This document shows, one piece after another, positions 7,701 to 23,493 of a stretch of DNA of 32,000 nucleotides (within the stretch, counting starts at the first letter, position 1; the number at the start of each line of letters is the position of its first letter). The position numbers and the translations under genes were made by a program. The notes beneath the pieces were generated by a model, which saw nothing but the letters and a program-made list of their open reading frames with translations, ran no database searches and was not told where the DNA came from. Origin of the DNA: Candidatus Anammoxibacter sp. (GTDB lineage Bacteria; Planctomycetota; Brocadiia; Brocadiales; Anammoxibacteraceae); the NCBI GenBank assembly GCA_021777055.1, contig JAIQZO010000012.1, positions 39,013 to 71,012 of the forward strand, read 5' to 3'.

Positions 7701-9357
7701 CAGTCAATAGGTTACGTTTTTTACCGGCAAACATGGTAAGGCTCATCACAACACCTTCGCGAATCGGATCAATTGGGGGATTCGTAACCTGGGCAAAGCG
7801 CTGTCTAAAATAGTTAAATAGAAGTTTAGACCTTTTGGAAAGTACGGCAATGGGGGTATCGTCACCCATGGAACCTATGGGCTCTTGTCCATTAACGGCC
7901 ATAGGAGTAAGGATTGTTTTTACATCCTCTTGGGTATATCCAAATGCCTTCATCTTCTGTCTAGCCTGGCGGTGATCTTCCTGATGAATAGTAGGGGAAT
8001 CAAATAACCCCATAAGTTCTATCTTTCCACTTTCAAGCCATCTTCTGTATGGACTCTGGCGTGCAATCTTACTCTTTATCTCATTGTCGTTAATGATCCT
8101 CTTTTCAACCGTATTGATCAGGATAATATTTCCAGGTCCAAGACTGCCTTTTTTTCTTACCTTATCTGCAGGTATGTCAACTACTCCGGCTTCACTTGCA
8201 ATAACCACGATATTGTCCGTTGTAACTGTATACCGACATGGACGCAAGCCGTTACGGTCAAGAATTGCCCCCAGAAGCCTGCCGTCTGTAAATGCAACTG
8301 CCGCGGGTCCGTCCCATGGTTCCATAATGGCAGAATGATATTCGTAAAATGCCCTTTTGTCTCTACTCATATGATATTTTGATCCGAATGCTTCAGGCAT
8401 CATCATCATCGCTGCATGTGGCATGCTTCGTCCGGACCGCACAAGTAACTCCATTACACTGTCAAAACAACCTGAATCGCTCATGTCAGAATAGAGAACC
8501 GGAATTACATCATCAATATGCTTCCCAAACCGCTCACTGTGCATAGTTGTCTCTCGTGCCTGCATATAGCTCTTATTGCCACTAATTGTATTCATCCCTC
8601 CATTATGTGCAATATTTCTAAAAGGCTGGGCAAGCTGCCAGTTTGGAAATGTATTCGTGCTATAACGCTGATGGACAATTGCAAGGGCGGATTTAACTCG
8701 TTTATCTTCAAGATCTGGGTAATAAGCAAATAGCTGATATGCTAGAAACATGCCTTTATAACAAATGGTTCTACACGAAAGAGAGGTAACATAAAATTCA
8801 TCACCGGCATTACCAAACCTTATTTTCACCTCCCTTTCCGCACGTTTACGGGCCAGGTATAAATTGAGTTCAAAATCATCTTCACAAAGGCCATTAGATG
8901 AAACAAAGACTTGTCGAATTGACGGTTCTGCGGTCAAGGCAACCTTTCCAAGGCAATTGGCATTTACAGGTACTTCACGCCAGCCAAGTACTTCCATTTT
9001 ATAATAACGCAGGGCCTCTTCCAGAATATAATCACAACCAACCCTGATATTGTCATCCTTTGAGCCAAACACCATTCCAACGCCATATTTGTATAGCTCA
9101 GGCAAATGGAAGTTTAGTTTTTCTGTTTCATCTATAAAGAACTGATGGGGAATCTGAAAAAGAATTCCGGCACCGTCACCGGTATCTTCATCAGCACCCG
9201 CGGCACCACGGTGCTCAAGATTAAGGATAATGTTTTTCGCGTACTCGATAATAGAATGATCACGATCCCCGTTAATATTTACAACAGCCCCGAGACCACA
9301 TCCATCATGCTCTGTTGCAGGGTCATACAGCCCACGGCTTTCTGATTTATATGACAT
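4786..9357 (-). CDS. gltB: Glutamate synthase large subunit (GOGAT alpha / Fd-GOGAT-like)
   Basis: 1523 aa. N-terminal Ntn amidotransferase Cys (HDGCGLGAVV), central and FMN/Fe-S domains, and a C-terminal GXGXG beta-helix domain. A GAAAGGA Shine-Dalgarno lies 6 nt before the ATG. Confidence 0.95.
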   Translation of the reverse strand: MSYKSESRGLYDPATEHDGCGLGAVVNINGDRDHSIIEYAKNIILNLEHRGAAGADEDTGDGAGILFQIPHQFFIDETEKLNFHLPELYKYGVGMVFGSKDDNIRVGCDYILEEALRYYKMEVLGWREVPVNANCLGKVALTAEPSIRQVFVSSNGLCEDDFELNLYLARKRAEREVKIRFGNAGDEFYVTSLSCRTICYKGMFLAYQLFAYYPDLEDKRVKSALAIVHQRYSTNTFPNWQLAQPFRNIAHNGGMNTISGNKSYMQARETTMHSERFGKHIDDVIPVLYSDMSDSGCFDSVMELLVRSGRSMPHAAMMMMPEAFGSKYHMSRDKRAFYEYHSAIMEPWDGPAAVAFTDGRLLGAILDRNGLRPCRYTVTTDNIVVIASEAGVVDIPADKVRKKGSLGPGNIILINTVEKRIINDNEIKSKIARQSPYRRWLESGKIELMGLFDSPTIHQEDHRQARQKMKAFGYTQEDVKTILTPMAVNGQEPIGSMGDDTPIAVLSKRSKLLFNYFRQRFAQVTNPPIDPIREGVVMSLTMFAGKKRNLLTESAEHIKQLKLPHPILTHDDVERLRTVNRKDFKVATISTLFEVTRKDDPGFDMQNALNTLVNNAEEAIKDGASLIILSDRKISENKIAIPSLLATAAVDRGLVNKLLRGEVGIVVESGEPREVMHFCLLCGYGANAVHPYLAFETLFMLKQQNHLPEDMELMQVGDNYITAIKKGMLKTMSKMGISTLRSYKSAKLFEAIGLKRHFVERYFPVAGSRINGIGLDDIAKETVERHNLAFACKDKESVELDIGGEYRFKNKGELHLWNPTTISLLREAVTGNDKTIYADYANAVNDQTKRLYTLRGLFEFSKNNSIDINEVEAEEEVVKRFCTGAMSYGSISKETHESIAIAMNRLGGMSNSGEGGEDPARYSSSDENGKMKNSAIKQVASGRFGVTIDYLIHARELQIKMAQGAKPGEGGQLPGHKATEEIAKLRYSIPGVTLISPAPHHDIYSIEDLSQLIYDLKCVNREAKVSVKLVSDFGIGTIAAGVAKANADEILISGHSGGTGASPLSSLKHAGSPWELGLAEAQQVLLMNGLRNRVRLQVDGGIMTGRDVVIAALLGAERFGFGTAALVALGCALLRKCHEGACTFGIGTQDPELRKKFDGRPEYIERFMLFVANEVRQIMAELGFRTFDEMVGRVDYLRKREDIEHPKARNLDLSPIFYQPFVEDKAQLKQTCFQPDKINDHLDWHILKNIMPLIERNEKASFELPIRNTDRAIGTILSSHIVKKYGPKGLADESVEVTFKGSAGQSFGAFLAPGITLHLLGEANDFLGKGLSGGRIIVQIPEEAPFLAHENIIAGNTLLYGATSGEVFINGVCGERFAVRNCGATAVVEGIGDHGCEYMSGGVVVVIGHAGYNFAAGMTGGVAYVLDSMQLFDTRCNLDLVELETVWRDEDQETLYKLILRHYKWTKSKHAQYILNSWEEMVGKFVKVIPLDYSKALKNIRDSALPAADSITATEEVFSCKQL

Positions 9358-9429
9358 AAATATCCTTTCGTGTAACTTTCAAACTAATCGATTTTAATCA
9401 AACATATTGAGCACTACCATTACTATTCT

Positions 9430-10758
9430 CTATATTCTAAGATAGTGATCCCGCTCCCAATCTGTAACTGCAATTCTATAACTTTCCCATTCCGCTTCTT
9501 TAATAAACAGGTACTTTTCGTAGATGTGATTTCCAAGTGTCTCCCTGGATATAGGGTTTTTCTTATACTCTTCCAATGCTTGTCCCAATGAAGCTGGCAT
9601 ATTAGTTATACCAACTGTTCTTTTTTCATCACCTGACATATCGTATATGTTAAGATCCACAGAAGGAGGTGGAGTAAGTTCATTTCTTATTCCGTCAAGT
9701 CCTGCATTTAACATCATTGCAAACGCCAGATATGGGTTGCACGATGGATCAGGGCAGCGAACTTCTACTCTAGTACCAACACCCCTTGAAGATGGTATTC
9801 GAACAAGGGCACTGCGGTTGGAAGCTGACCATGAGATATAAACCGGTGCCTCATATCCCGGAACTAACCTCTTATATGAATTAACCAATGGGTTTGTTAC
9901 AGCAGAGAAACCTTTTGCGTTTTTTAATATTCCAGCAATGTAATTGTATGCTATCTTGCTAAGTTGCTCCTTATCGTCTTTATCATAAAAGGCATTACTT
10001 CCGTCCAGATTAAAAAGTGACTGGTTTGTGTGCATACCTGATCCGTTAGTCCCGAATACAGGTTTTGGCATAAAGGTCGCGTGCAATCCGCGTCGCAACG
10101 CCACGGTTTTCACAACCCATTTAAAAGTGATAGTATTGTCTGCACATCTAACCGCATCTGCGTATTTAAAGGATATTTCATGTTGTCCCTGTGCAACTTC
10201 ATGGTGAGACGTCTCCACTTCAAACCCCATTATTTCGAGTGTTTCTATTATCTCCCTGCGGCAGTCAATACCGTAGGAATCTTCATTATCAACACTAAAA
10301 TAACCGGATGCATCATCTGTATCAGTTGTAGGTAATCCATCTTTGTCCAATTTAAACAAGAAAAATTCCGCTTCAGTACCTACATTCATTGTGTATCCCA
10401 TATCATGTGCCGAAGTGAGCACCCTTTTCAGATTTACACGGGGACAGCCGGGGAATGGAGTTTCTTCTGACGAATAGACATCACAGATAATCCTTGCAGT
10501 TGAAATACCTTCTTTGTTTCGCCATGGCAATATAGAGAATGTATCAAAATCCGGTTTCAAATACATGTCAGACTCTTCGATACGTGCAAATCCGTCTATG
10601 GATGAACCGTCAAACATCATTTGTCCGTCCAAGGCCTTTTCAATTTGACTCTTAGGAATGCCAATATTTTTCATCATTCCATTAACATCGCAAAACTGCA
10701 AACGAAAGAAATGAACTCTTTCCTCTTTCAATATCCCCAATATCTCTTCCTTTGTCAT
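9430..10758 (-). CDS. glnA: Glutamine synthetase, type I
   Basis: 442 aa. Contains LRLQFCDVNG.., the ATP-site motif KPVFGTNGSGMHTNQSLF, and NPLVNSYKRLVPGYEAP. Shine-Dalgarno is AAAGGGGTG. Confidence 0.95.
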   Translation of the reverse strand: MTKEEILGILKEERVHFFRLQFCDVNGMMKNIGIPKSQIEKALDGQMMFDGSSIDGFARIEESDMYLKPDFDTFSILPWRNKEGISTARIICDVYSSEETPFPGCPRVNLKRVLTSAHDMGYTMNVGTEAEFFLFKLDKDGLPTTDTDDASGYFSVDNEDSYGIDCRREIIETLEIMGFEVETSHHEVAQGQHEISFKYADAVRCADNTITFKWVVKTVALRRGLHATFMPKPVFGTNGSGMHTNQSLFNLDGSNAFYDKDDKEQLSKIAYNYIAGILKNAKGFSAVTNPLVNSYKRLVPGYEAPVYISWSASNRSALVRIPSSRGVGTRVEVRCPDPSCNPYLAFAMMLNAGLDGIRNELTPPPSVDLNIYDMSGDEKRTVGITNMPASLGQALEEYKKNPISRETLGNHIYEKYLFIKEAEWESYRIAVTDWERDHYLRI

Positions 10759-11100
10759 ACTTTCACCCCTTTCTTTACCGCATAATCGTTAAGAATGGCG
10801 GAGAATCTCTTTGTAGATTATGAGATTTCTACTTTAACCAGTTAATAATCTATTTGTGAAAAAAAATAAAAGGTTAGGAAAACAGAACAGCAAGGTACCA
10901 ACCAATGTTCTTGGAAAAAAAGATTGAAACAAGCAGGCTTAAACCAGCTCATATTTTAGAGGAAACTCTTCAGGTCGGAGAAAAATCATCTGCAAAGATC
11001 AAATTCATCATTACAGAAATGTATAGAGAAATTCTATGATACAAAAGTATTTGCTAGCAATCACAGAGCATAGAACCTTTTATAGTCTCTATTAGTTAAG

Positions 11101-11132
11101 GGAAGGGAAAGTACAGAGATACTTTCCCTTCC
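11101..11132 (-). terminator. Strong hairpin 36 nt downstream of the last cluster gene (probable operon terminator)
   Basis: Perfect 13-bp stem GGAAGGGAAAGTA / TACTTTCCCTTCC with a 6-nt loop. The trailing sequence on the minus strand is only moderately U-rich. Confidence 0.5.
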
Positions 11133-11168
11133 ATAACATTATCATTAATTTTAGTTTTGAACTCTTAA

Positions 11169-12650
11169 TTAATAAACAGTTGCAACACCTGCTAAATCTT
11201 TATTTACCGTAACGGAGTTACTCTTATACCAGTCCTGATAATAGTCACCAGAATCGTAAAGCTCTTTAAGGTGATCTAATACCTGTTCAAACACTTGTTT
11301 CCAGTCACACCCAACCTTGTATGCAAACATAGCGTTTCGCGGATTATGGTTCCTCTTTATCGTATTTCTGAACCTTGTACGAAGCATATCGCCATCATAA
11401 ACCATCTTATAGACCAACTGCATACCTTCAATGAACTCCTCCAAAGTCATATCAACAAATCTATGACAAACATTTGCAGTATCATAATATTTCCAGTCCA
11501 TAGGGAAATTTTTCCTAAATATTCTCCCTTCCGAATCAACGCGTTTAAAGAGTGGTGTGGTTGGAAACGGAGTGTTAATACCATAAGTCAGGATGTCTAT
11601 ATTGTTATCCAGAACAAAATTTGCCATTCGTTCAAATGAATCTTTAGTATCACCGTCCGCACCAAAAACCATTGAACCCCAAACAACTAGTCCGGCCTGA
11701 TGAATCTTATCCACTGACTCATAATAGCTGTCAACGCCCATCTTAAGGTTAACCCTTTTGTTCATCTTTTTAAGAACGTCTTCATTTGTGGATTCTATAC
11801 CTATCAGCATACCAAAATTTCCACTCTTAGCCATATAATCCAAGGTGTCTGCATCCTGGGAGATATTTAATGCTGTAAACCCGAGCCAATCCTTGTTCAG
11901 CTTTCTTTCAACCATTCCCTTAAACAGGCGGTTAGCTCTCTCATTTGATCTTTTTCCGTGTCCATAGAAATTGTCTTCTGCAAGCATCAGTCCCTTGTAA
12001 TCTGTAGCTTCCATCTCATCAAGCACATCTTCTACCGGTCTTTCCCTGAACTTCCCCCCCTGAAAAGTAGGAACGCTGCAGAAATCACATTTATTGGGAC
12101 ATCCCTTAGTTGTGATGATAGATGAAAATTTATAATCATACTTTTTTCGCAATAAGTCCCTGTCCGGATACACGTTTTTTAACAAACTCAAGTCAGGTAA
12201 GCCACCTTCATATAATTTCTTCAGATTGCCCTCTTCAAAGTCCTTAATAACTGTAGGCCAAATAGCTTCAGCTTCACCTGTAACAACACAATCAACATAT
12301 TCCATAGCCTCTTCTGTTACAACCGATGCATGTAAACCTCCCATTATAGTCGTCATACCCTTCTTTTTACAGGCAGCGGCTATTTTGTATGCACGTGCGG
12401 ACTGAAATGTCAGTGCAGTTAAACAGACGAGATCAAAGCCATCGAAGATAACATCGGTCTCCTCTTCATTCATTGCAAGCTCAATGTTTTCATCAATAAT
12501 ATCAAATTCCCATTCCCCTGGTGTAAGGGACGCAAGGTAAGCTAACCCCAATGGCATTTGCACAATTACAGTAATACTCTCTTCCCCATGTCTCCCTGGC
12601 GGATGGGGGCTGATCAGCATCATTTTTTTCTTCATATAATGTACCTCCAT
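11169..12650 (-). CDS. B12-binding-domain radical SAM enzyme (class B)
   Basis: N-terminal cobalamin-domain-like region (DLVCLTALTFQSARAYKIA..TIMGGLHASV..VVTGEAEAIW), then ITTKGCPNKCDFCSVP (CxxxCxxC). The likely true start is the ATG at 12635 (MKKKMMLIS), because GGAGG sits 8 nt upstream of it. Confidence 0.85.
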   Translation of the reverse strand: MEVHYMKKKMMLISPHPPGRHGEESITVIVQMPLGLAYLASLTPGEWEFDIIDENIELAMNEEETDVIFDGFDLVCLTALTFQSARAYKIAAACKKKGMTTIMGGLHASVVTEEAMEYVDCVVTGEAEAIWPTVIKDFEEGNLKKLYEGGLPDLSLLKNVYPDRDLLRKKYDYKFSSIITTKGCPNKCDFCSVPTFQGGKFRERPVEDVLDEMEATDYKGLMLAEDNFYGHGKRSNERANRLFKGMVERKLNKDWLGFTALNISQDADTLDYMAKSGNFGMLIGIESTNEDVLKKMNKRVNLKMGVDSYYESVDKIHQAGLVVWGSMVFGADGDTKDSFERMANFVLDNNIDILTYGINTPFPTTPLFKRVDSEGRIFRKNFPMDWKYYDTANVCHRFVDMTLEEFIEGMQLVYKMVYDGDMLRTRFRNTIKRNHNPRNAMFAYKVGCDWKQVFEQVLDHLKELYDSGDYYQDWYKSNSVTVNKDLAGVATVY

Positions 12651-12822
12651 AAAAAACAGTTAACTGTTATTAATTAGAATTTTTAACAATTTATTACAAT
12701 GGGATTTGTTATATATAATAAATGTCCCCAATACGTCTAAAGATAAGAGTTACAACCATAGTAAAACACAGCAAACCATTTCCCCAAGAATAGGACTTTT
12801 CTAGTATATGGATTCCACTGGT

Positions 12823-14277
12823 CTAATTAGTAATGTTATCTTTTAAAATTATATTTGCCGCTTTCCAGCCAGAAGATACTACGGAACTTATCCCAGGACC
12901 AGGAGTTGTCCAATGTCCTGCAAGATAAAGCCCTTTTAGCGGAGTAATATGTGACAGCCTGTTGCTAGCTATTTGATCATTTGTAACCGCCCAACCGTAA
13001 GCAGCACCTTTAGAATTCAATGTGTATCGTTTCAATGTTTTCGGTGTTGCAGCTTCTATAACTTCAATTTGATTCCTCAATCCAGGCACAAATCGAGTAA
13101 GATAATCTATAGTAGACTCAGTATAATCATCCTTCAGCTCTTCCCAATTCACTGTTTCATCATAAGCTTTTTTTAATGAAACAAGTGTAAAGATTATCTG
13201 TTTGTTTTCAGGGGCAAGTGATTTATCTACTGCTGTTGGTACTGAAATGTATTTCCAATTATCATGAGTATAAGGTCCATCAGTCTGGTAATAAAAACCC
13301 CTCTTTAAACCACTAAGATTTAAGTCCGCACTTACACCTAGATATAAAAGGTAAAATGATATACTCTCCTTCATTTTGCCAATTTTTTCAATGAAACTAT
13401 TATCAATACCGGAGCTAATTAACGTTGTAAAAGTCTGTTTTGCGTCAACATTAGAGACTATAACATCTGCTTTTATCTCTTTTTCTCCAGCCAAAGCGAC
13501 CCCTATTACCTTACTATCATCCGTTAAAATCTTTTCAACCTTTGCAGATAAGACTAGATGACCTCCCAGCTCAGTATACCGCTCCACGATAGCATTCGTA
13601 AATTCCTGTGTACCTCCGACCGGAAAATAAGCCCCGTCTTTTAGATAATTAATCAGCATCTGGCACATGCCAATAGTTGATACTTCACCCGGTAGCGAAC
13701 CTATATAACCCCATTGCCCGGCAAGGATAGTCTTTAATTTTGGATTTGAGAAAAAGCAGTCAAGCGTTTCAAGATATGTGAGGTCCTTATATTTATTTAT
13801 TAACGGGCTATCCGCCTTATTATTAATTATGGACCGATAGAGTTTAGTAAGTTCCTTGAAAAAGCCATCAAGGCACTCTTTCTCATCAGGGAACATTAAC
13901 TGCAAATTTTCTTTATATTTGTCAATATCTGCCGGAATCTCCACACTAAAAGAAGGAAAGATTAAATTATCCATCGGATCTAAATGGTGGAAATCTATTT
14001 CAAGCCCAAGCTCATTAACACATCTACCAACAATACTCCATTTCCCACATCCACCAATATGGTGGACAGCAGAATCAAAAATAAAGCCTTTGCGTTTAAA
14101 AGAAGTACAATAACCTCCAGGAATATAATGCTGTTCCGCAATCAAAACCTTTTTACCTGATTTTGCAAGAAAGGTTCCACATATCAGCCCTGCAATACCA
14201 GCACCAACTATAATCACATCATATTTACCATTTAATTGTGATCTGCCAGAAAAGTTTTTTGCATCAAATTTAGCCAT
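12823..14277 (-). CDS. Phytoene desaturase (CrtI/CrtD)-family FAD-dependent oxidoreductase
   Basis: 484 aa. N-terminal dinucleotide fold YDVIIVGAGIAGLICGTFLAKSGKKVLIAEQ..PGG and a C-terminal family signature GLYLAGHWTTPGPGISSVVSSG. Confidence 0.8.
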   Translation of the reverse strand: MAKFDAKNFSGRSQLNGKYDVIIVGAGIAGLICGTFLAKSGKKVLIAEQHYIPGGYCTSFKRKGFIFDSAVHHIGGCGKWSIVGRCVNELGLEIDFHHLDPMDNLIFPSFSVEIPADIDKYKENLQLMFPDEKECLDGFFKELTKLYRSIINNKADSPLINKYKDLTYLETLDCFFSNPKLKTILAGQWGYIGSLPGEVSTIGMCQMLINYLKDGAYFPVGGTQEFTNAIVERYTELGGHLVLSAKVEKILTDDSKVIGVALAGEKEIKADVIVSNVDAKQTFTTLISSGIDNSFIEKIGKMKESISFYLLYLGVSADLNLSGLKRGFYYQTDGPYTHDNWKYISVPTAVDKSLAPENKQIIFTLVSLKKAYDETVNWEELKDDYTESTIDYLTRFVPGLRNQIEVIEAATPKTLKRYTLNSKGAAYGWAVTNDQIASNRLSHITPLKGLYLAGHWTTPGPGISSVVSSGWKAANIILKDNITN

Positions 14278-14310
14278 CTTACTGTTTACAAAATTGGGGT
14301 GTCAATTTGA

Positions 14311-15540
14311 TCATTTAGACAAGATCAACGATGAAACATTACCAGTATCTGAGAAAGAGTTAATCAAAACATTTTTTACATCAATCTTCCTACTGTTATT
14401 AGACACGTAATCAAGGTCACATCCATTATCTTGTTCTTCGTAATTAATAGTTGGAGGGATAATGTTATTATTCAAAGCCATAACACCTGAAACAATTTGC
14501 ATTGCGCCTGAAGCATCAAGGCACTCTCCAACCATGGATTTGATTGAACTTATAGGTACGTCTTTTGCAATATCACCAAAGACCTCTTTAATGACCATTG
14601 TCTCCCTTTCATCACCAGTTATACTTGAGTTTGCACATGCAGAAATATAAGATATGTCTTTTGCTGTCAATGATGCGGTCTTTAAAGCCAGCTCCACGGA
14701 CCTTTTACTGTTTTGCGCACATTCAACACTATTTTTACACTTATCAGGGTTAAACGCGGTCCCGTAACCTTTGATCTCCGCAAGGATATTTGCCCCTCTG
14801 CTTTTTGCAGACTCCATATCTTCCAATACCATAACTGCTGCACATTCTCCAAGAATAAAACCGTTACGCCTTTTATCAAAAGGTGCTGATATCTCTAAAC
14901 TTCCGTCTTTACTCCCAGAAAGCAAACCAGAAGCAGAAGCACCAAGATAGATACCATAAGTCAACCCAAAAACGCCACCGGCTAATACCGCCTTTATCCT
15001 TTCCATTTTCAGAAAGTCAGCCGCGTATACAACAGCATCTATACCACTGGTAACACCGGTGGAAACTGTTGTGTTCAATCCGGTTGCATTACAAAATATA
15101 GATGCCCGGCTAGCGGGAGCATTTAAAACCGTATTGGGAAATGCCATTGGGTTAACATAACTCGGTCCTTCTTTAAGCGCATCCAGATCAAATTCACTTA
15201 TACTGTCTATACTTCCATATGTTGACCCGATTACAATTCCTAAATCATCACCACTATACGTATCTTCTTTAATATTAGAGTCCACCATTGCAAGCTTGGT
15301 AGCAGATGATGTCAAAAGAGAGGTTCTGTCTATGTGACGTATACCTTTTTTACCAAGGTACTCTTTTGCATCAAAATCTGAAATCTCGCCAGCTAACTTA
15401 CTCTTAAACAAAGATACATCAAAAAGTGTCACGGGTTTTATACCGGAAACACCATTTATTAAGTTATTCCAAAATGATTCTTTATCCGAACCAATAGATG
15501 AAATTATACCAATACCAGTTATAACTATCTGTTTTTCCAT
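14311..15540 (-). CDS. Ketosynthase-like protein lacking the catalytic triad (CLF/KS-beta-like partner)
   Basis: 409 aa with a thiolase-fold KS pattern. The three catalytic positions read Val (VSTGVTSGID), Cys (YISACANSS) and Glu (SMVGECLDASG). The start lies 1 nt after the stop of the upstream KS. Confidence 0.85.
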   Translation of the reverse strand: MEKQIVITGIGIISSIGSDKESFWNNLINGVSGIKPVTLFDVSLFKSKLAGEISDFDAKEYLGKKGIRHIDRTSLLTSSATKLAMVDSNIKEDTYSGDDLGIVIGSTYGSIDSISEFDLDALKEGPSYVNPMAFPNTVLNAPASRASIFCNATGLNTTVSTGVTSGIDAVVYAADFLKMERIKAVLAGGVFGLTYGIYLGASASGLLSGSKDGSLEISAPFDKRRNGFILGECAAVMVLEDMESAKSRGANILAEIKGYGTAFNPDKCKNSVECAQNSKRSVELALKTASLTAKDISYISACANSSITGDERETMVIKEVFGDIAKDVPISSIKSMVGECLDASGAMQIVSGVMALNNNIIPPTINYEEQDNGCDLDYVSNNSRKIDVKNVLINSFSDTGNVSSLILSK

Positions 15541-15541
15541 T

Positions 15542-16771
15542 TTACCCTACAAATTTTTTCAACACTAAACAACTATTATTACCACCAAACGCATACGCAT
15601 TGTTCATGGCAATGTTTACTTTAGTTTCTCTCTTTTCATTCGGAACAACATCCAAATCACACTCAGGGTCTTTTTCAAAGAAATTAATTGTGGGAGGCAC
15701 AATATCATTCTTGACTACCAATGCACACGTTATAGTCTCTATAGCGCTGGCAGCTCCCATTGTATGCCCGATCATTGATTTAATAGAACTAATCATTATG
15801 TTTTTAGAATGATCTCCAAAAACTTTCTTTACCGAGACAGTTTCCGCTTTATCATTGGCTACGGTTCCTGTCCCATGTGCGCTAACATACTGAACATCAG
15901 AAGGTTTAATCTTTGAATTTTCCAGTGCTTTATTCATTGCAGAAATGACGCCTACACCATCAGGATGAGGTATGGTAATATGATATCCATCACAGCTCAA
16001 ACCATATCCTATAATCTCTGCATATATGGTGGCGTTCCTCTTTAATGCACTTTCAAGGGATTCCAAAACAACCACACCTGCCCCCTCACCAATCAGCATA
16101 CCTTTACGATTTTTTTCAAACGGCTGACAGATTTCCGGCGCAATAGCATTAAGCCTGCCAAATCCCACATAAGCTACCCTGGAAAACGGATCTGCCCCGC
16201 CAGCAAACATATAGTCCGCTCTCCCCAAAGATATTAAATCACAAGCATACCCGATAGCATAATTACCGGCCGCGCATGCAGTAGGTACCATTGTATTTGG
16301 ACCTTTAAATCCAAATTCAATTGCAATGTTTGAAGGCATACTATTACATGGATGTTTTAAGAAAAGATCAGGACTAACCGATCCGTCACCGTTATTAAAT
16401 CTGATATCATCTATTGCCTCCAAAACCTGTATTTCTCCTGCCGTAGTGCCTATTGAAACACCAACCTTCTCTAGATCAATTGAGCTTAAATCAAGGCCTG
16501 AATCATCAAGCGCCAGTTTGGCTGCCGCAACTGCAAATTCGGAACCTTTACCCATATCCCGACAAGTACCATTTGCGAAATAATCTTTTATCTGGAAATT
16601 ATTTACTTCACAACCCCTATGGACCTTAAACTGTGAAGTATCAAAGCCCTTTACAGTATCAACTCCAGATTTCCCCGAAGTTACAGCATCCCAAAAGACA
16701 TCTGTTCCGCAACCAATTGGAGATATCACCCCCATGCCGGTGATTACTACTCTCTTAGCCTTATATGCCAT
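15542..16771 (-). CDS. fabF: Beta-ketoacyl-ACP synthase II-type condensing enzyme (catalytically intact)
   Basis: 409 aa. Has the active-site Cys in [13 protein letters not shown], His in [16 protein letters not shown] and His in [14 protein letters not shown]. Confidence 0.9.
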
Positions 16772-16788
16772 AAAACTTACATCGCCTT

Positions 16789-16817
16789 AATAAATAAACA
16801 AACCCCGATTAACGGGG
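16789..16817 (-). terminator. Short GC hairpin plus U-tract between fabZ and KS (attenuator/partial terminator candidate)
   Basis: The minus strand reads CCCCG-TTAAT-CGGGG followed by TTTGTTTATTTATT. Only 17 nt remain before the KS start codon. Confidence 0.4.
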
Positions 16818-16854
16818 CAAATTAACATCGTTTAAATTTTTAAATTTCAATAAG

Positions 16855-17301
16855 TTAACCTAAATCACTTTTTTCCGCAACACCAAAAGTCAAAGATGCT
16901 TTTGCCACTACTTTCCCGTCAACCTTAGCCACACCCTGGACAATCGCCCCCTTTGATACAATTTTATCAACATTAATCTCCAAAAACAGCTGATCACCTG
17001 GCACAACTGGCTTTGAAAAGCGTGCATTGGATACAGAGACCAGTAAGAACACCTTCCCATCACTATCCGTATCAGAAGAACCTTTTTTAAATAATACAAT
17101 AGATGCCTGAGCCAGTGCCTCAAGAATTAAAACCCCTGGCATTATGGCAAAATCAGGAAAATGACCAACAAAGTACGGCTCATTTGCTGAAACATTCTTT
17201 ATACAAACGACCCTTTTCTTTTCCTCGAATTCTACAATTTTATCTATTAAGATAAAAGGGTTTCTCTGAGGAAGCAGCTCTTTAAGCTCTTCAAAACTCA
17301 C
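16855..17301 (-). CDS. fabZ: 3-hydroxyacyl-ACP dehydratase
   Basis: 148 aa with a GTG start preceded by AGAGGTG. Hot-dog fold signature EPYFVGHFPDFAIMPGVLILEALAQ, with the catalytic His and Glu present. Confidence 0.9.
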   Translation of the reverse strand: MSFEELKELLPQRNPFILIDKIVEFEEKKRVVCIKNVSANEPYFVGHFPDFAIMPGVLILEALAQASIVLFKKGSSDTDSDGKVFLLVSVSNARFSKPVVPGDQLFLEINVDKIVSKGAIVQGVAKVDGKVVAKASLTFGVAEKSDLG

Positions 17302-17491
17302 AATGCACCTCTTTGTAAATCTTTATACACAACAAAACTGTTATGATATTTTCATTTTGATCGCAAATGACACTGATTATATTTTGATTACGCAGATTTT
17401 ATTCAATGCGTCCAGTATCTATTCATATAAATCTGAGTAATCAAGTATAAAAGAAACTCCCTATACATAAATATAATCTGCTCAGAGGACA

Positions 17492-17755
17492 TTAAGAACC
17501 CTGAGCTAATACCTCTTTCGTCATCTTTATGGTCTGCGCAAGAGAAGTTATATCTACCAATTTCTCTTCAGGAATTTGAATTTTGAATTTTTTTTCTATT
17601 AACGCTAAAATCTCCAAAGCAAGTAAAGAGTCTATTTCTAAATCTTTAAAGAAATCAGCTTCCTTTTTCTCCCAAATTTCGCTCTCTTCCATCTCGGTTA
17701 CCTCTGCAACAATTGCGGTAACATCTCTCTCTGTATCATCTGAATACAACTGCAA
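17492..17755 (-). CDS. Stand-alone acyl carrier protein
   Basis: 85-87 aa, acidic. Phosphopantetheine attachment motif DLEIDSLLALEIL. The listed TTG start abuts a G6 run, so the in-frame TTG at 17749 (7 nt after GGAAGGGGGG) is the more plausible start. Confidence 0.85.
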   Translation of the reverse strand: MQLYSDDTERDVTAIVAEVTEMEESEIWEKKEADFFKDLEIDSLLALEILALIEKKFKIQIPEEKLVDITSLAQTIKMTKEVLAQGS

Positions 17756-18149
17756 ACCCCCCTTCCAAGTATATATGTGTAAAACAAGAACTAAACATAT
17801 AAATTATTTAATATATACATTTATACTATAAAAAAACATACTATAAATTCTAAATCTATTACCTTAACTCTTTTTTGCCTATACTGAAATTATCTAAAAA
17901 ACAACAAAACGGACTAGCAATACTTTGACAGTTCGTATTAATTCCTTACAGTGAAACAAAAAAACGGCTTGACTACATAATCGCAAACATTTACAACTAT
18001 CAACCGTTTATTTCCACAGCAATAAATTCAATCGGATAATGATATCAGGGCATAAATCGATTGTCAATAATAATATCACTGGCATTATTGTATAGAAGCT
18101 GCAACATCTTAAAAAATGAATACCAAGAATATAAATTTGCAAACATTTC

Positions 18150-19154
18150 TCATTTATACTTGGTACCTATTATCATACCAGAGCCAGAAGAGAGATTGAT
18201 TCGCTGCAAATTCTCAAAGCCAACCTGCTGCAGCCATTTTGTTATTTCACTAGCACTATAATTTCTACCACCATGAGTTGCCGTTAGCATGTTCAAGCTA
18301 AACAAAACCGCAAACTCAGGCGCCGTCATGGAATTATCCAACAAAAAATCATGAACGACTACCCTTCCATTGTCCTTCAATGCCGCTAAACATTTTTTTG
18401 CAATCTTGATATTGATTTTTTCATCGTACATGTGCATAAGGTTTGACACAAATACCACATCATACAACCCCTTTCCATAACTGCCACCCAAACATTCACC
18501 GTTTATAGTACTGATACGCTTTTCCAGTTTAGCCTCATTTATATACTCCATGGTAATTTCAGTTACACCTTCAAGATCAAAAACCACAGCATTAAGTCCG
18601 GGATTTAATTTCACAAATTCAATTGCAAAGGAACCAGGTCCACCTCCGAGATCTAATAGCAGTTTACATCCTGACAGATCAAGACTCTTTGCAACCTCTT
18701 TGCTTTTCAGGACAGCAAAGTCTCTCATTGCTGATATAAAAACCCGTCGTCTCGCAGGGTCAACCTCCTCGCCCACATTATCAAATGATACTGGGCCTCC
18801 CGTTTTCACGGCTCGGTTAAGTTTCCCCCAATTATCCCACAAATTACCGAAAAGGAGGATTCTGTTACCCTGGTACATAGGCCTACCCTTTACAAGAAAC
18901 CTATCTGCAATCTGCCTATTTTTAAACATATCCCCTTTTTTTGACAGAAAGCCCAACCCGGCCAAAGCATTTAACAACATCTCCGTAGCTCTCTTCTCAG
19001 CCTTAATTTGACTGGCAAGTGATACTATTGATTTTTCTGATCTATATAGCTTGGTGAAGATCTCAAACTCAACCGCGACAATCAATACCTGGGATTTCCA
19101 ATATCCGGCAGAGAGGTCTGAAATATAATCAAATTGAGATTTAATTGTTTTCAT
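18150..19154 (-). CDS. Class I SAM-dependent methyltransferase (O-methyltransferase family 2-like, with N-terminal dimerisation domain)
   Basis: 334 aa. SAM motif I LLDLGGGPGSFAIEF, an acidic post-I residue (VVFDLE) and motif VFVSNLMHMY. The N-terminal ~100 aa are helical and dimerisation-like. Confidence 0.85.
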   Translation of the reverse strand: MKTIKSQFDYISDLSAGYWKSQVLIVAVEFEIFTKLYRSEKSIVSLASQIKAEKRATEMLLNALAGLGFLSKKGDMFKNRQIADRFLVKGRPMYQGNRILLFGNLWDNWGKLNRAVKTGGPVSFDNVGEEVDPARRRVFISAMRDFAVLKSKEVAKSLDLSGCKLLLDLGGGPGSFAIEFVKLNPGLNAVVFDLEGVTEITMEYINEAKLEKRISTINGECLGGSYGKGLYDVVFVSNLMHMYDEKINIKIAKKCLAALKDNGRVVVHDFLLDNSMTAPEFAVLFSLNMLTATHGGRNYSASEITKWLQQVGFENLQRINLSSGSGMIIGTKYK

Positions 19155-19222
19155 TGAAATTTATTTTGTAGAAAAGCAACCAAAACAAAAATTAAGATGG
19201 GCCAAACAACATCAACACAAAG

Positions 19223-20800
19223 TTAACACACTGCAAGCTCTTTTAGTTTAGCCGTATGTTCTTTTTTCAGATCCACAATTGCCTGTTTGTTCATATTAAG
19301 TGCGCCTTTTTCAAAAGAGAGAAGCGTTTGGTCAAACATATTAATAATCGTTGTATTTAAGACAGAAAGGAAACTATTTTCATGCATATCAGTATCTTTA
19401 CAAAAACAATCTTCACTGTACATACCCTCTGATCTACTATAATTTGCAACTATTGAAAATACGTTATTACAAAGACTGGAAGTAATATCCACAAGCGATG
19501 ACATCCTTTTGTCCGTGTAATCAAATTGCTTCTCATATCCGTCAGGATCACAAGGTTTAAAATGCCCATTATCTCCACTATAATCCGGAGTTCCCAGAAA
19601 GATTGATTGTTTATGGCACAAAAGATGCGCGGTTGTATAAGGATCTTTCATTAACCCCATCTCTTTTAAGAATGTAAAGTTTTTCCTTATACCGTTTATT
19701 TCCGTATCCTTACCAAACATTATAAAACCCACATTCGGTTCTATTCCACAATCTCTAACGATACTAATCGCGTTCTTATTAATCTCTACCGTTGTCTTCT
19801 TTTTAAATCCGTCAAGGGTGGTTTGATCACCACTTTCGACCCCCAAAAAGAGATTTCTCAGACCAGCTTTAATCAACAAAGAGATAACATCCTTTTCAAT
19901 ATCGTTAGCACGGCTTTCAAGACCAATACTGATGTTTAATCCATCATCTATAATTAGATTGGCAAGATCCCTCGCCCTTGCCTTACCAGAAACAGCATTG
20001 CCAAAAAAACTTGCATCCGCAAAATAGAAATTATCACAACCATGATCATTGTAAAGTTGTTTGATCTCATCAAAAACGTTTTTCGCACTTCGGCCACGCC
20101 ACGTTGCGTTGTCTCCATAGAATGGATTTAAATAACAAAACCCACAGTTATTGTAGCACCCCCTACTGGCAAGGATATATGTTACAATACCTTTTTGATT
20201 TGCAATCACCATGTCCCTACGATCTGGAAACGGCAATGCATCCAAGTCAGATATTTGGTCTCGCGGCACCAACGAATTTGGTATATCTCGGCTTACAAGG
20301 CCGTCAATTCCAGAGAGTTCCACGTTACCGTCAGTACCCACTATTCGTGATGACAACTCAAGGAATGTATATTCAGGTTCACCAACAACGACAGAATCTA
20401 TGAATGGAAAACGTTTCAAAATACTTTTATATGCAAAGGTGGAATAGTGTCCATACAAGCTTATATGCGCAGTTATACCTGCATTGCAAAGCCTTTCCAG
20501 CAAAGCAAATATCTCTTCCGTCTTTTCCCACAAATACACAAGGCGTATTCCAATTACCTTGTAAGATGCACCCATTAACATTTCAAATGTATCATTAATA
20601 GACAACCTCTTTAGATTTGCATCTATTATATCTGTTTTTAAGTCGTTTTTTTCCAGTAAAGCAGCCATATAACCTGTCATTAAACATGCGGACAATGGCG
20701 CATTTACAACATCTTCCGCTCGCTTGGGATTGTCCGGTCTAGGATGTTCAATGAGCGCAATTTGCGCTTTGCTTTGTCTGTAAATACCATTTTCTTTCAT
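19223..20800 (-). CDS. B12-binding-domain radical SAM enzyme (class B)
   Basis: 525 aa. N-terminal cobalamin-domain-like region (..VIGIRLVYLWEK..HISLYGHYSTF..VVVGEPEYTF), then ILASRGCYNNCGFCYLN (CxxxCxxC). Confidence 0.85.
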   Translation of the reverse strand: MKENGIYRQSKAQIALIEHPRPDNPKRAEDVVNAPLSACLMTGYMAALLEKNDLKTDIIDANLKRLSINDTFEMLMGASYKVIGIRLVYLWEKTEEIFALLERLCNAGITAHISLYGHYSTFAYKSILKRFPFIDSVVVGEPEYTFLELSSRIVGTDGNVELSGIDGLVSRDIPNSLVPRDQISDLDALPFPDRRDMVIANQKGIVTYILASRGCYNNCGFCYLNPFYGDNATWRGRSAKNVFDEIKQLYNDHGCDNFYFADASFFGNAVSGKARARDLANLIIDDGLNISIGLESRANDIEKDVISLLIKAGLRNLFLGVESGDQTTLDGFKKKTTVEINKNAISIVRDCGIEPNVGFIMFGKDTEINGIRKNFTFLKEMGLMKDPYTTAHLLCHKQSIFLGTPDYSGDNGHFKPCDPDGYEKQFDYTDKRMSSLVDITSSLCNNVFSIVANYSRSEGMYSEDCFCKDTDMHENSFLSVLNTTIINMFDQTLLSFEKGALNMNKQAIVDLKKEHTAKLKELAVC

Positions 20801-20857
20801 TGCCGTTATACATGCATTTCTATATTAGGTGAATAGACGGAAGGCTGAAGGTAAAAA

Positions 20858-21033
20858 CATAGCGCGGCGAAGCCGCAATCAAAATACGAGATGCCAGATA
20901 CTGGATACTGGCAAATAGTTCAATTTCTATCTTTCTTGTCAAGATGCAACATAACTAGAATAGCTTACCAGGAATACATGCAAAACTCTTTCTAGAAAAA
21001 ACAAGCTTTTACAGTGTAATACTATACTATAAA
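20858..21033. repeat. Modular intergenic repeat, copy B
   Basis: CATAGCGCGGCGAAGCCGCAATCAAAATACGAGATGCCAGATACTGGATACTGGCAAATAGTT..GTCAAGATGCAACAT..CTTTCTAGAAAAAACAAGCTTTTACAGTGTAATACTATACTATAAAG. Near-identical blocks are shared with copy C. Confidence 0.7.
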
Positions 21034-21087
21034 GTCATTTAAGTGGACAGGCAGAAGCTTTTACCTCCAGCCTATCCACTTAACCTG

Positions 21088-22422
21088 TTATTCTGCAGTC
21101 GCCGCAGCGTAATCCCTCTTCTTGCTGTTTGCAAGATCCTCTTCGTAGTATTTGCTAACAGTTTTCAACGAACAGAACTTTCCACACATTGTGCAAGTAT
21201 CGGTCTCCATCGGCGGCCGGTCACCCCTAATCTCCTTTGCTCTTTCCGCAGTTATAGCAGTTTCGTACTGAGTCTTCCAGTCTAAATCCCTTCTTGCTAT
21301 ACCCATCTTCAGGTCCATATCCCTGGCCTTATCCTTTAGTTTTACCATGTCGCCAACATGCGCAGCAACCTTTGCAGCCATAACACCCTCTCTTACATCA
21401 TCCGGTTTCGGCAGTGCCAGGTGTTCCGGCGGTGTAACATAACAAATAAAATCAGCTCCATGGCTTGAAGATATCGCCGCCCCTATAGCAGATGAAATAT
21501 GATCATACCCAGGCGCAACATCAGTGGTAATAGGTCCAAGCATATAAAAAGGAGCATTATTGCTTAACCGTTTCTGGATTATAACGTTTGCTTCAATCTC
21601 ATCAATAGGTATGTGTCCTGGCCCTTCAACGATAATCTGCACTCCCTTTTTCTGTGCATACTCTGCTATTTCAGAATTCATTATCAGTTCTTGAATTTGA
21701 GCCCTGTCAGTGCTGTCATGTATTGCTCCAGCTCGCAAACCATTACCAAGGCTAAGAATAACATCGTGCTTCTTCATAATATCAATAAGTCTGTCTATTT
21801 GATCATAAAGAGGATTCTCTTTTTTATTATGATTCATCCAAGCTGTAAGAAAAGAACCTCCGCGACTAACAAGGCCTCCATACCGGTATCCCTGCCTCTT
21901 TAACCGCTCCAGAGTTGTAAGATTAATCCCGCAATGAATAGCCATAAAACCTATACCTTCTTCAGCCTGCTGTTCTATTACATCAAACAAGAAGTCGGCA
22001 TCCATGTGAACAACAGAACCTTTCTGATTTATTGTCTCAATTGCAGCTTGATAAAGTGGTACAGTTCCCACTGTCAGATTAATAGCATCAAGAACACGCG
22101 TCCTAATAGCTTTAAGATCTCCCCCGGTTGACAACTCCATAAGTGTATCAGCTCCGCTTTTTTCAGCAACCTTTGCTTTCTCTACTTCCATATCATGATC
22201 AATTATGTCAGGTGATGTACCTATACTGGCATTAACCTTTGTCTTTAATCCCTTTCCGATTCCAATTACAGTGGCTTTACGATTGGGATTTCCGTAAATT
22301 ACAATTGTCCCTTTTGCAATGCCGTCTCTTATGAATTCAGGGCATACGTCATCATAAACCGCAGCCTCTTTCATCGGTTCTGTTATTACTCCGTCTCGGG
22401 CCAATTCTAATTGCGTTTTCAT
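21088..22422 (-). CDS. thiC: Phosphomethylpyrimidine synthase (thiamine pyrimidine synthase)
   Basis: 444 aa. The ThiC core runs throughout (GTVPLYQA, HCGI, SRGGS, LGDGLRPG-like LGNGLRAG), and the C-terminal Fe-S motif is CTMCGKFCSLK. An AAGGAG Shine-Dalgarno lies 8 nt upstream. Confidence 0.95.
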   Translation of the reverse strand: MKTQLELARDGVITEPMKEAAVYDDVCPEFIRDGIAKGTIVIYGNPNRKATVIGIGKGLKTKVNASIGTSPDIIDHDMEVEKAKVAEKSGADTLMELSTGGDLKAIRTRVLDAINLTVGTVPLYQAAIETINQKGSVVHMDADFLFDVIEQQAEEGIGFMAIHCGINLTTLERLKRQGYRYGGLVSRGGSFLTAWMNHNKKENPLYDQIDRLIDIMKKHDVILSLGNGLRAGAIHDSTDRAQIQELIMNSEIAEYAQKKGVQIIVEGPGHIPIDEIEANVIIQKRLSNNAPFYMLGPITTDVAPGYDHISSAIGAAISSSHGADFICYVTPPEHLALPKPDDVREGVMAAKVAAHVGDMVKLKDKARDMDLKMGIARRDLDWKTQYETAITAERAKEIRGDRPPMETDTCTMCGKFCSLKTVSKYYEEDLANSKKRDYAAATAE

Positions 22423-22650
22423 GCCTTCTATCTCCTTTTTCAGTTATATTAAACTTGGTTGATTTTTTATTTTATACAAGAATTTTGTTTTCTATAATAC
22501 TCTCTACGAGGAAACAAATTAAAGATTTAGGAATTCAGATCTTAGTTATATTTAGGTGTTATGATTTTCCCGATACCGCAAGCTTAGCGCATGGGAAACA
22601 GCAGAACTTAATAACATTCAAATATAACCAGAAGATGGGCCACAAAATCT

Positions 22651-23493
22651 TTAATCTATGCCTTCGTTGAATATATACTTTGAACAGTTAATCGTAACAG
22701 TATCCCCCTTCTCAACATTTAGAAGCTCTTTGGCATTCGCTTTATTTACTGCGATCTCCAAATACCCTGCACTCCCAAACAACGCAACCAGCCCTCCTTC
22801 TTCTACCTCCGAATACGACTGGTTGATCTTTTTTATCCTGTGGTTTGCAACCGTAATTGATAAAGCACCGTACATTCCATCTATTTGAAAGCTTTTCAAT
22901 AAACCTCTATTTATGTTTGTAATAAGATTTCCAAACCGGTCTATGTATATTATTTGTGCAGTCGCTATCCCGTTTGTGGACAATACTGGAGCAGGCGTCT
23001 CTATTTTCTCTATTTCAAAGATTTCCGCACCTAGCTCATTAATATCTACACCATTCATCAAATGCCCCGCAACTGGAGCAAAAACATCTCTACCATGGAA
23101 AGTATTGCTCACCTCCGGCAAAAAATATTTATTATTTGTAACATTTATAATTGATAAAGATTTTTCGCCATCCGCAATCAAGCTCAAAACCCCGTTATCA
23201 GGGGCGAGAAAGGTGTATTTGTCAGTTTTTAAGCATACAATTCTGCGGGTGCTCCCCACACCTGGGTCCACCACAACAACATGCATGGTACCAGAAGGGA
23301 AAAAACTGTACGCAGAAAATAAAATGTATGCCGCACCAAAGATATCCTGAGGATTTATATTATGACAAAGGTCAACAATCCTTGCATTCTGGCACGTATT
23401 TAAAATCACCCCTTTCATAACTGCAACATATTCATCCTGCAAGCCAAAGTCCGTTGTCAATGTAACTAACGAGTTCTGTTTTGACATATCCAA
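22651..23493 (-). CDS. SAM hydroxide adenosyltransferase family protein (DUF62; fluorinase/chlorinase-related)
   Basis: 280 aa. Contains LVTLTTDFGLQDEYVAVMKGVI, VVVVDPGVGS, NTFHGRDVFAPVAGHL and DRFGNLITNI, which are characteristic of the DUF62 family. Confidence 0.8.
   Translation of the reverse strand: MDMSKQNSLVTLTTDFGLQDEYVAVMKGVILNTCQNARIVDLCHNINPQDIFGAAYILFSAYSFFPSGTMHVVVVDPGVGSTRRIVCLKTDKYTFLAPDNGVLSLIADGEKSLSIINVTNNKYFLPEVSNTFHGRDVFAPVAGHLMNGVDINELGAEIFEIEKIETPAPVLSTNGIATAQIIYIDRFGNLITNINRGLLKSFQIDGMYGALSITVANHRIKKINQSYSEVEEGGLVALFGSAGYLEIAVNKANAKELLNVEKGDTVTINCSKYIFNEGID

Follow-up and report, generated by a model that had tools for sequence, protein, structure and literature searches.

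In a 32,000-nucleotide (nt) stretch of a Candidatus Anammoxibacter genome (GenBank assembly GCA_021777055.1, contig JAIQZO010000012.1, positions 39,013 to 71,012; hereafter the window), we analyzed two adjacent genes that encode an active ketosynthase (KS) and a paralog that has lost its catalytic residues (the dead KS). This gene pair is the amxFabF2/amxFabFmut pair of anammox "Cluster I," a putative ladderane cluster and the strongest candidate for the genes with which anammox bacteria make ladderane lipids. We consider it very likely that the window encodes an amxFabF2/amxFabFmut heterodimer in which all the chemistry falls to the KS; the dead subunit would serve as the other half of the dimer, contribute to the lining of the acyl tunnel, and influence chain length. 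A sequence-only reading of the window had described a dead FabF-like protein paired with an active KS, forming a heterodimer like that of a KS and its chain-length factor (CLF) in a fatty acid synthase (FAS)-like context. That reading was correct and is already published: a May 2026 preprint describes the Kuenenia, Brocadia, and Scalindua orthologs in these terms (Granatino et al., bioRxiv 10.64898/2026.05.19.726425).

The evidence from the window consists of orthology, gene context, the state of the catalytic triads, conserved tunnel residues, and purifying selection. That the two proteins form a heterodimer, are active only together, and affect chain length would carry over from the published work on orthologs. 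We infer that the same mechanism operates in this organism and that it yields a ladderane lipid. The pair has the following features:

15542-16771, minus strand: KS, the active ketosynthase and amxFabF2 ortholog; 409 amino acids (aa) from an ATG start; Pfam domains PF00109 and PF02801.
14311-15540, minus strand: dead KS, the amxFabFmut ortholog; 409 aa from an ATG start; PF00109 and PF02801.
15538-15544, minus strand: the KS/dead-KS junction TAA-a-ATG, read directly from the sequence, with AGGG 4 nt upstream of the dead-KS ATG.

Both proteins are FabF-like, and they are 35% identical to each other (144/415; BLASTP, E 4e-69). The motifs that had been picked out by eye were all found in the translated open reading frames (ORFs) of the two proteins, including VSTGVTSGIDA, YISACANSS, and KSMVGECLDASG in the dead KS. 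We identified the active-site columns with HMMER against Bacillus subtilis FabF (4LS6), with a MAFFT alignment of the pair, and with a MAFFT alignment that included 120 homologs. The three independent alignments agree in placing Cys166, His299, and His336 of the KS opposite Val163, Cys302, and Glu339 of the dead KS. The proposed change from Cys-His-His to Val-Cys-Glu thus holds in the same columns each time, and rigorous alignment with FabF does not restore the triad. In the alignment with 120 homologs, the KS also carries Lys331 and the gate residue Phe395; the dead KS keeps the active-site lysine as Lys334 and has Asp398 at the gate position. Phe134, Thr137, and Val138 of the dead KS are the counterparts of the Brocadia fulgida tunnel residues F135, T138, and V139. 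The dead KS, which lacks the triad, scores below the canonical FabF cut-offs (351 bits vs 494 for TIGR03150 and 336 vs 387 for PRK07314). The KS is also below the first (458 vs 494) and lies above the subfamily cut-off of the second (438 vs 387).

Orthology to Cluster I is clear for each gene separately. In the PDB entries 9S5H/9S5I, the counterpart of the KS is chain B (E 6e-198) and that of the dead KS is chain C (E 8e-172). Since cross-matches between the two proteins and the opposite 9S5H chains reach only about 1e-69, each protein is orthologous to its own chain. The gene order, acyl carrier protein (ACP)-FabZ-KS-dead KS-phytoene-desaturase-like flavoprotein ("PDH")-B12-binding radical S-adenosylmethionine (SAM) enzyme, is that of KustE3603-3608, and it recurs at the loci L001, L002, and L041. 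When each species was represented by a single genome, a scan recovered this pair from about 70 Brocadiales genomes, in the same gene order and at 60-73% identity. No GTDB species representative matches the dead KS above 73%, and the nearest relative among these representatives is Ca. Anammoxibacter (80% identity for the KS and 68% for the dead KS). The preprint places amxFabFmut "just upstream" of amxFabF2; in the window and at every locus examined, the active KS gene comes first, and the KustE3605/3606 numbering also suggests that it precedes the dead KS.

The dead subunit has a longer history in the literature. Kuste3606 was tabulated by Rattray et al. in 2009 as Val163/Asn298/Lys328/Glu333/Arg392, and a differing function was concluded (PMC2649909); Javidpour et al. 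(2016) listed it as a "non-canonical FabF." The preprint provides the biochemistry. amxFabF2 and amxFabFmut co-elute on nickel-nitrilotriacetic acid (Ni-NTA) resin, neither is active alone, and the pair decarboxylates malonyl-amxACP and makes acetoacetyl-ACP (Granatino et al., 10.64898/2026.05.19.726425). The physical 1:1 heterodimer and its activity only as a pair were demonstrated with Kuenenia and Brocadia proteins. In the B. fulgida crystal structure there is a single catalytic tunnel, to whose wall the dead subunit contributes Phe135, Thr138, and Val139. C8 and C6 probes crosslink faster than a C16 probe does, the F135G/V139G change in the dead subunit alters this preference, and amxACP contacts both subunits. 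The authors claim the first chain-length factor in a fatty-acid pathway. They report Cys replaced by Val (Thr in S. brodae) and His replaced by Asn, Glu, or Cys in amxFabFmut, so the Val/Cys/Glu state of the window is covered by substitutions already stated there.

Conservation within the dead subunit shows that it is a constrained protein. In an alignment of 15 diverse dead-KS orthologs (A1), about 140 columns are invariant, including the tunnel residues F134, T137, and V138. Nonsynonymous divergence (dN) was 0.23-0.30 for the dead subunit and 0.12-0.21 for the KS, a ratio of 1.3-1.9. Synonymous divergence (dS) was saturated in five of the six comparisons, and we therefore report only dN and one dN/dS ratio (0.08). 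Mean tree distances follow the same order, at 0.41 and 0.30. The dead subunit is under purifying selection yet evolves faster than the KS, and because its dN lies far below the saturated dS, it is not a pseudogene. These data bear directly on a view in which the dead KS is a functionless, decaying duplicate and the KS works as a normal homodimer. The loss of all three catalytic residues and of the gate Phe, together with the faster evolution, is what such decay would look like. The full-length ORF is nevertheless intact throughout the Brocadiales genomes above and in other phyla, the amount of constraint is large, the KS alone is inactive in the preprint, and fused KS-dead-KS proteins exist. 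We regard this explanation as extremely improbable, contradicted as it is by context and conservation.

Among the 120 closest homologs, the Cys position holds Thr in 57, Val in 51, Ile in 6, and Glu in 6, and never Gln; the first-His position holds Cys in 98, Asn in 21, and Ser in 1. All 120 have Glu in place of the second His and keep the Lys, and 41 have the exact Val/Cys/Glu combination of the window. In A1, the segment K334-S335-M336-x-G338-E339-C340-x-D342-A343-S344 is invariant (x marks the two exceptions), as are S300, A301, A303, and S305. Such conservation around a dead site could be taken to mean that the dead KS is a real enzyme with non-canonical chemistry, or that the site has a ligand-binding role. 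In one form, it would couple a short linear acyl chain to a ladderane moiety that had been built elsewhere, as proposed in 2009 (PMC2649909); in another, it would run a reaction using Cys302, Glu339, and Lys334. Rattray et al. had assigned the protein another substrate and another function as a proposal (PMC2649909), the crystal structure has a second tunnel that reaches the dead site and contains bound polyethylene glycol (10.64898/2026.05.19.726425), and Glu at the second His extends to 58 of 70 wider dead-triad representatives. Set against this, the Kuenenia dead subunit alone showed no decarboxylation, condensation, or crosslinking (10.64898/2026.05.19.726425). Because both the Cys position and the first-His position vary among homologs, Cys302 is not a conserved nucleophile. 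Overall, we find a hidden activity or ligand-binding role unlikely.

The pairing appears to be old. We built a neighbor-joining tree of 54 non-CLF sequences with our own distance code and 100 bootstraps. It separates a clade of all the dead subunits (bootstrap 100) from a clade of all the Cys-His-His partners (93), and the pairing therefore traces to a single old duplication. The dead KS and the KS of the window group with Ca. Anammoxibacter (bootstrap 95 and 100, respectively), and the monophyletic anammox dead-KS clade has a bootstrap of 97. The G+C content of the window locus, 0.39, lies within the range of anammox loci (0.37-0.40); no hydrazine-synthase marker was found within the window.

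For a wider search, we ran a dead-subunit profile over 1.84 billion representative proteins. Its best 150 matches include 70 single-domain proteins with a dead triad, 66 of which keep the Lys and 58 of which have Glu at the second His. The same 150 include 36 proteins of about 750-870 aa in which an N-terminal Cys-His-His KS is fused to a C-terminal dead KS, a domain order identical to the gene order in the window. Retention of Lys with a change of the second His to Glu marks a large family of dead partners, to which the dead subunit of the window belongs and which includes the fusions. The fusions lend independent, indirect support to the idea that such pairs work one-to-one. Examples are P0177, P0178, P0186, P0189, and P0193, with about 30 others; individual ones may be mis-called gene fusions.

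Based on these observations and the published work, we propose the following mechanism for the amxFabF2/amxFabFmut heterodimer. The KS would be the sole catalytic subunit, loaded on Cys166 from acyl-amxACP, with His299 and His336 serving malonyl-amxACP decarboxylation and condensation. The dead KS would fold as a FabF monomer, replace the second subunit of the dimer, and catalyze nothing. Its helix-loop-helix, with Phe134, Thr137, and Val138, would be part of the acyl-tunnel wall of the active subunit. This contribution would make the active KS functional and bias it toward short chains of about C6-C8, the role that chain-length factors have in type II polyketide synthases (PKS). The 1-nt junction probably helps equal production of the two proteins. 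An arrangement of the pair as two independent homodimers was also considered and rejected.

Several points weigh against the proposed heterodimer mechanism. Within the preprint (10.64898/2026.05.19.726425), in vitro elongation stopped at acetoacetyl-ACP, the evidence on chain length derives from a non-physiological crosslinking reaction, and S. brodae amxFabFmut can crystallize as a homodimer. No experiment ties Cluster I to ladderanes, and for the proteins of this organism the mechanism is one we carry over from orthologs. The K334-S344 region is among the most conserved parts of the dead KS, and a pure spacer role has no obvious need of it. Lastly, the charge asymmetry of the helix-loop-helix that reportedly enforces heterodimers over homodimers, a property of the surface potential, is not visible in the sequence: both segments have a net charge of -4, and a sequence-only charge test is therefore uninformative.

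Our own structural model was poor at the interface. An AlphaFold2 monomer of the dead KS, built from a 15-sequence alignment, had a mean predicted local distance difference test (pLDDT) score of 61.5, and residues 108-163, the interface region, were below 50. We used this model for a Foldseek search alone, against a PDB copy that predates 9S5H; it returned FabFs, with that of B. subtilis first, at a root-mean-square deviation of about 10 Å, and no CLF among the top 50.

The junction between the two genes deserves separate treatment. Direct reading of the minus strand confirmed that the two 409-aa genes are joined as TAA-a-ATG: the strand reads ...gtagggTAAaATGgaa..., with the stop at 15544-15542, the spacer base at 15541, and the start at 15540-15538. 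The earlier claim that this joining implies stoichiometric co-translation is a reasonable local inference and does not describe the system. Over 77 loci, the two genes are separated by anything from -1 to about 160 nt, and at one locus by 398 nt. Brocadia spacers measure about 50 nt, Kuenenia spacers about 100 nt, and Scalindua spacers 6-160 nt, and orthologs with long spacers have their own AGAGG ribosome-binding site 7-8 nt before the dead-KS start. What is conserved is the same-strand adjacency of the two genes; judging from the spacers, tight translational coupling would be a trait of this lineage and a few others.

The surrounding genes place the pair in the Cluster I context:

17492-17755, minus strand: amxACP ortholog, an anammox-type acyl carrier protein; PF00550; 87 aa from TTG.
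16855-17301, minus strand: amxFabZ ortholog, an anammox-type FabZ dehydratase; PF07977 and NCBIfam FabZ.
12823-14277, minus strand: phytoene-desaturase-like flavoprotein (KustE3607-type "PDH"); PF01593, with the CrtI-family model below its cut-off.
11169-12650, minus strand: B12-binding radical-SAM enzyme (KustE3608-type); PF02310 and PF04055.
16802-16818, minus strand: GC-rich hairpin and T-run within the 83-nt FabZ-KS spacer (16772-16854), found by consensus scan and direct reading.
18039-18067, minus strand: candidate sigma-70-like promoter (TTGACA, 17 nt, TG-TATCAT) upstream of the ACP gene.
18150-19154, minus strand: O-methyltransferase-like gene directly upstream of the ACP gene; PF00891.
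19223-20800, minus strand: second B12 radical-SAM gene, BchE/HpnJ-like, upstream of ACP and beside the methyltransferase gene.

The carrier protein and dehydratase are of the anammox type. The ACP, whose start the gene caller places at 17749 (85 aa) instead of the TTG, reaches an E of about 1e-33 with the solved amxACPs (7qv0_D, 7auf, and 9s5i_E), against about 1e-7 for ordinary ACPs. The FabZ matches the amxFabZ structures 8ayd (E 5e-63) and 7qv0 (2e-58), far above canonical FabZ. Compared with the genes at the same positions in L001, L002, and L041, the PDH is 59-68% identical and the radical-SAM enzyme 71-81%.

This context also bears on whether the pair could be an ordinary type II PKS ketosynthase-alpha (KS-alpha)/CLF making an aromatic or polyene polyketide. 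After 9s5h_B, the next-best structures for the KS are Iga11 (6kxd) and FabFs at about 1e-100, and the polyene ketosynthase Iga11 is the best non-anammox match (E 3e-101). In the tree, Iga11 also branches basally to the KS clade, though weakly (bootstrap 54), and type II PKS models of the AmcF and AmcE types match below threshold. The dead subunit tells otherwise: its Cys position is Val163 and is Gln in 0/120 of the closest homologs, its best non-anammox matches are FabFs (260 bits), and no CLF-annotated chain appears in its top 60 sequence or top 50 fold matches. Pfam on the ten ORFs at 11169-23493 finds no cyclase, aromatase, or ketoreductase, and ACP and FabZ are of the anammox type. A conventional type II PKS is accordingly very improbable here and, like the functionless duplicate, is contradicted by context and conservation.

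The locus also has putative regulatory features. The FabZ-KS hairpin is GCCCCG-ttaat-CGGGG followed by TTTGTTTATTTATT, and it looks like a putative intrinsic terminator or attenuator. We found it in common only with the Ca. Anammoxibacter locus L002. The FabZ-KS spacer, 83 nt here, is mostly 0-36 nt in other anammox loci, with a few longer (148-313 nt). In a consensus scan, the best sigma-70-like match upstream of ACP agrees at 11/12 consensus positions, making 18039-18067 a candidate operon promoter.

Further upstream, the methyltransferase and second radical-SAM pair occurs in the same place only in L002 among 12 tabulated loci (58% and 51% identity). The possibility that the methyltransferase is the crystallized anammox methyltransferase was rejected, as it has no close PDB match; the best, at 102 bits, is a DsyB-like enzyme. 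Just upstream of the two radical-SAM-containing gene sets also lie ThiC (21088-22422, minus strand) and a SAM hydroxide adenosyltransferase (22651-23493, minus strand; PF01887 and PF20257).

The six-gene cassette of ACP, FabZ, KS, dead KS, PDH, and B12 radical-SAM enzyme is also present in metagenome-assembled genomes from outside the anammox bacteria, most clearly in four cases:

8018-17124: cassette L073, on a 381-kb contig labeled "delta proteobacterium."
8021-17111: cassette L074, on a 1.8-Mb contig labeled "delta proteobacterium."
8030-17186: cassette L083, on a 239-kb JGI contig.
6497-15836: cassette L082, on a Logan contig.

Across L073, L082, and L083, identity to the window is 46-49% for ACP, 49% for FabZ, 52-58% for the KS, 47-56% for the dead KS, 45-50% for the PDH, and up to 59% for the radical-SAM enzyme; the non-anammox cassette proteins are 41-59% identical to the window proteins overall. 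The partner subunit is always dead, with Ala, Glu, Phe, Ile, Val, Leu, or Lys at the Cys position and the second His replaced by Glu. Outside their own clade, L073-type dead subunits are closest to anammox proteins, at about 50%. G+C content ranges over 0.36-0.70 at these loci. Several of the clusters have three tandem radical-SAM paralogs and a second KS/dead-KS pair, and several also carry an enoyl-CoA hydratase, a ketoreductase, and an AMP-ligase. Partial or rearranged cassettes are found under the labels Actinomycetota, Acidobacteriota, Oscillospiraceae, Thermodesulfobacteriota, and Bryobacteraceae.

Further non-anammox loci with a Cluster-I-type cassette are L071, L075, L076, L078, and L080. 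L013 (CAXMPV010000082.1, labeled Thermodesulfobacteriota) is an 8-kb contig with an anammox-type cluster whose proteins are 61-78% identical to those of the window; it is probably an anammox contig in the wrong bin.

The structural literature describes Cluster I as exclusive to ladderane producers (PMC10139942), and genome-mining papers report loosely defined "ladderane" clusters in other bacteria. We suggest tentatively, and with more doubt than confidence, that the pair did not originate in anammox bacteria and forms the core of a cassette that is older than they are and has spread horizontally.

How ladderanes are made has been an open problem for a long time, and the pair lies within the cluster to which their synthesis is attributed. 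With the window, the known orthologs gain a member from a poorly sampled anammox lineage. The comparative results are perhaps more useful, namely that the tight junction is not conserved and that a family defined by the kept Lys and the second His changed to Glu includes fusions. The Cluster-I-type cassette outside anammox bears on the origin of the pathway and on ways to study it, and of all the results it most merits further work. Should the products of these cassettes be acyl chains that are ladderane-like or otherwise cyclized by radical-SAM enzymes, ladderane-type chemistry would not be confined to anammox bacteria, and the pathway could be accessible in organisms that are easier to grow or express.

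Among known systems, the KS-alpha/CLF pair of type II PKS (ActI-ORF1/ORF2, 1TQY) likewise combines an active KS with an inactive paralog, encoded adjacently, that shapes the acyl tunnel. In a classical CLF, Gln replaces the Cys and priming proceeds through decarboxylation, whereas the dead KS of the window has Val and has lost both His residues as well. The dead KS is also closer to FabFs than to any KS-alpha (184 bits for the act KS-alpha), and in place of cyclases and aromatases the locus offers a FAS-like context. As for the "distinct CLF-like lineage" of the sequence-only reading, which did not recognize the locus as Cluster I, the evidence is indirect and fits a lineage separate from the Gln-type CLFs; this lineage is not new, having already been described as that of anammox Cluster I.

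The Iga11/Iga12 and ApeO/ApeC systems are KS/CLF heterodimers that work with FabZ-like dehydratases on reduced chains, as proposed for the window; their products are polyenes instead of saturated or cyclized lipids. Their clusters are not known to contain a phytoene-desaturase-like enzyme or a B12 radical-SAM enzyme. Canonical FabF (KAS II; B. subtilis 4LS5, E. coli 1KAS) has the same fold and length as the pair, and its active-site chemistry is that expected of the active KS in the window. FabF is a symmetric homodimer with two active sites, whereas here one subunit is permanently inactive and, in the orthologs studied, the active one does not work alone.

The characterized Cluster I pair, known as KustE3605/3606, Broful02171/02170, and Scabro02229/02228, differs from that of the window in detail. 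Its triad is Val/Asn/Glu in Kuenenia, with Thr at the Cys position in S. brodae, compared with Val/Cys/Glu here; its genes are separated by the longer Brocadia and Kuenenia spacers in place of 1 nt; and the FabZ-KS hairpin and the additional upstream B12 radical-SAM/methyltransferase pair are features of the window. The six-gene order, the orthologous proteins, the tunnel F/T/V residues, the gate Phe, and the anammox-type ACP and FabZ are the same in both.

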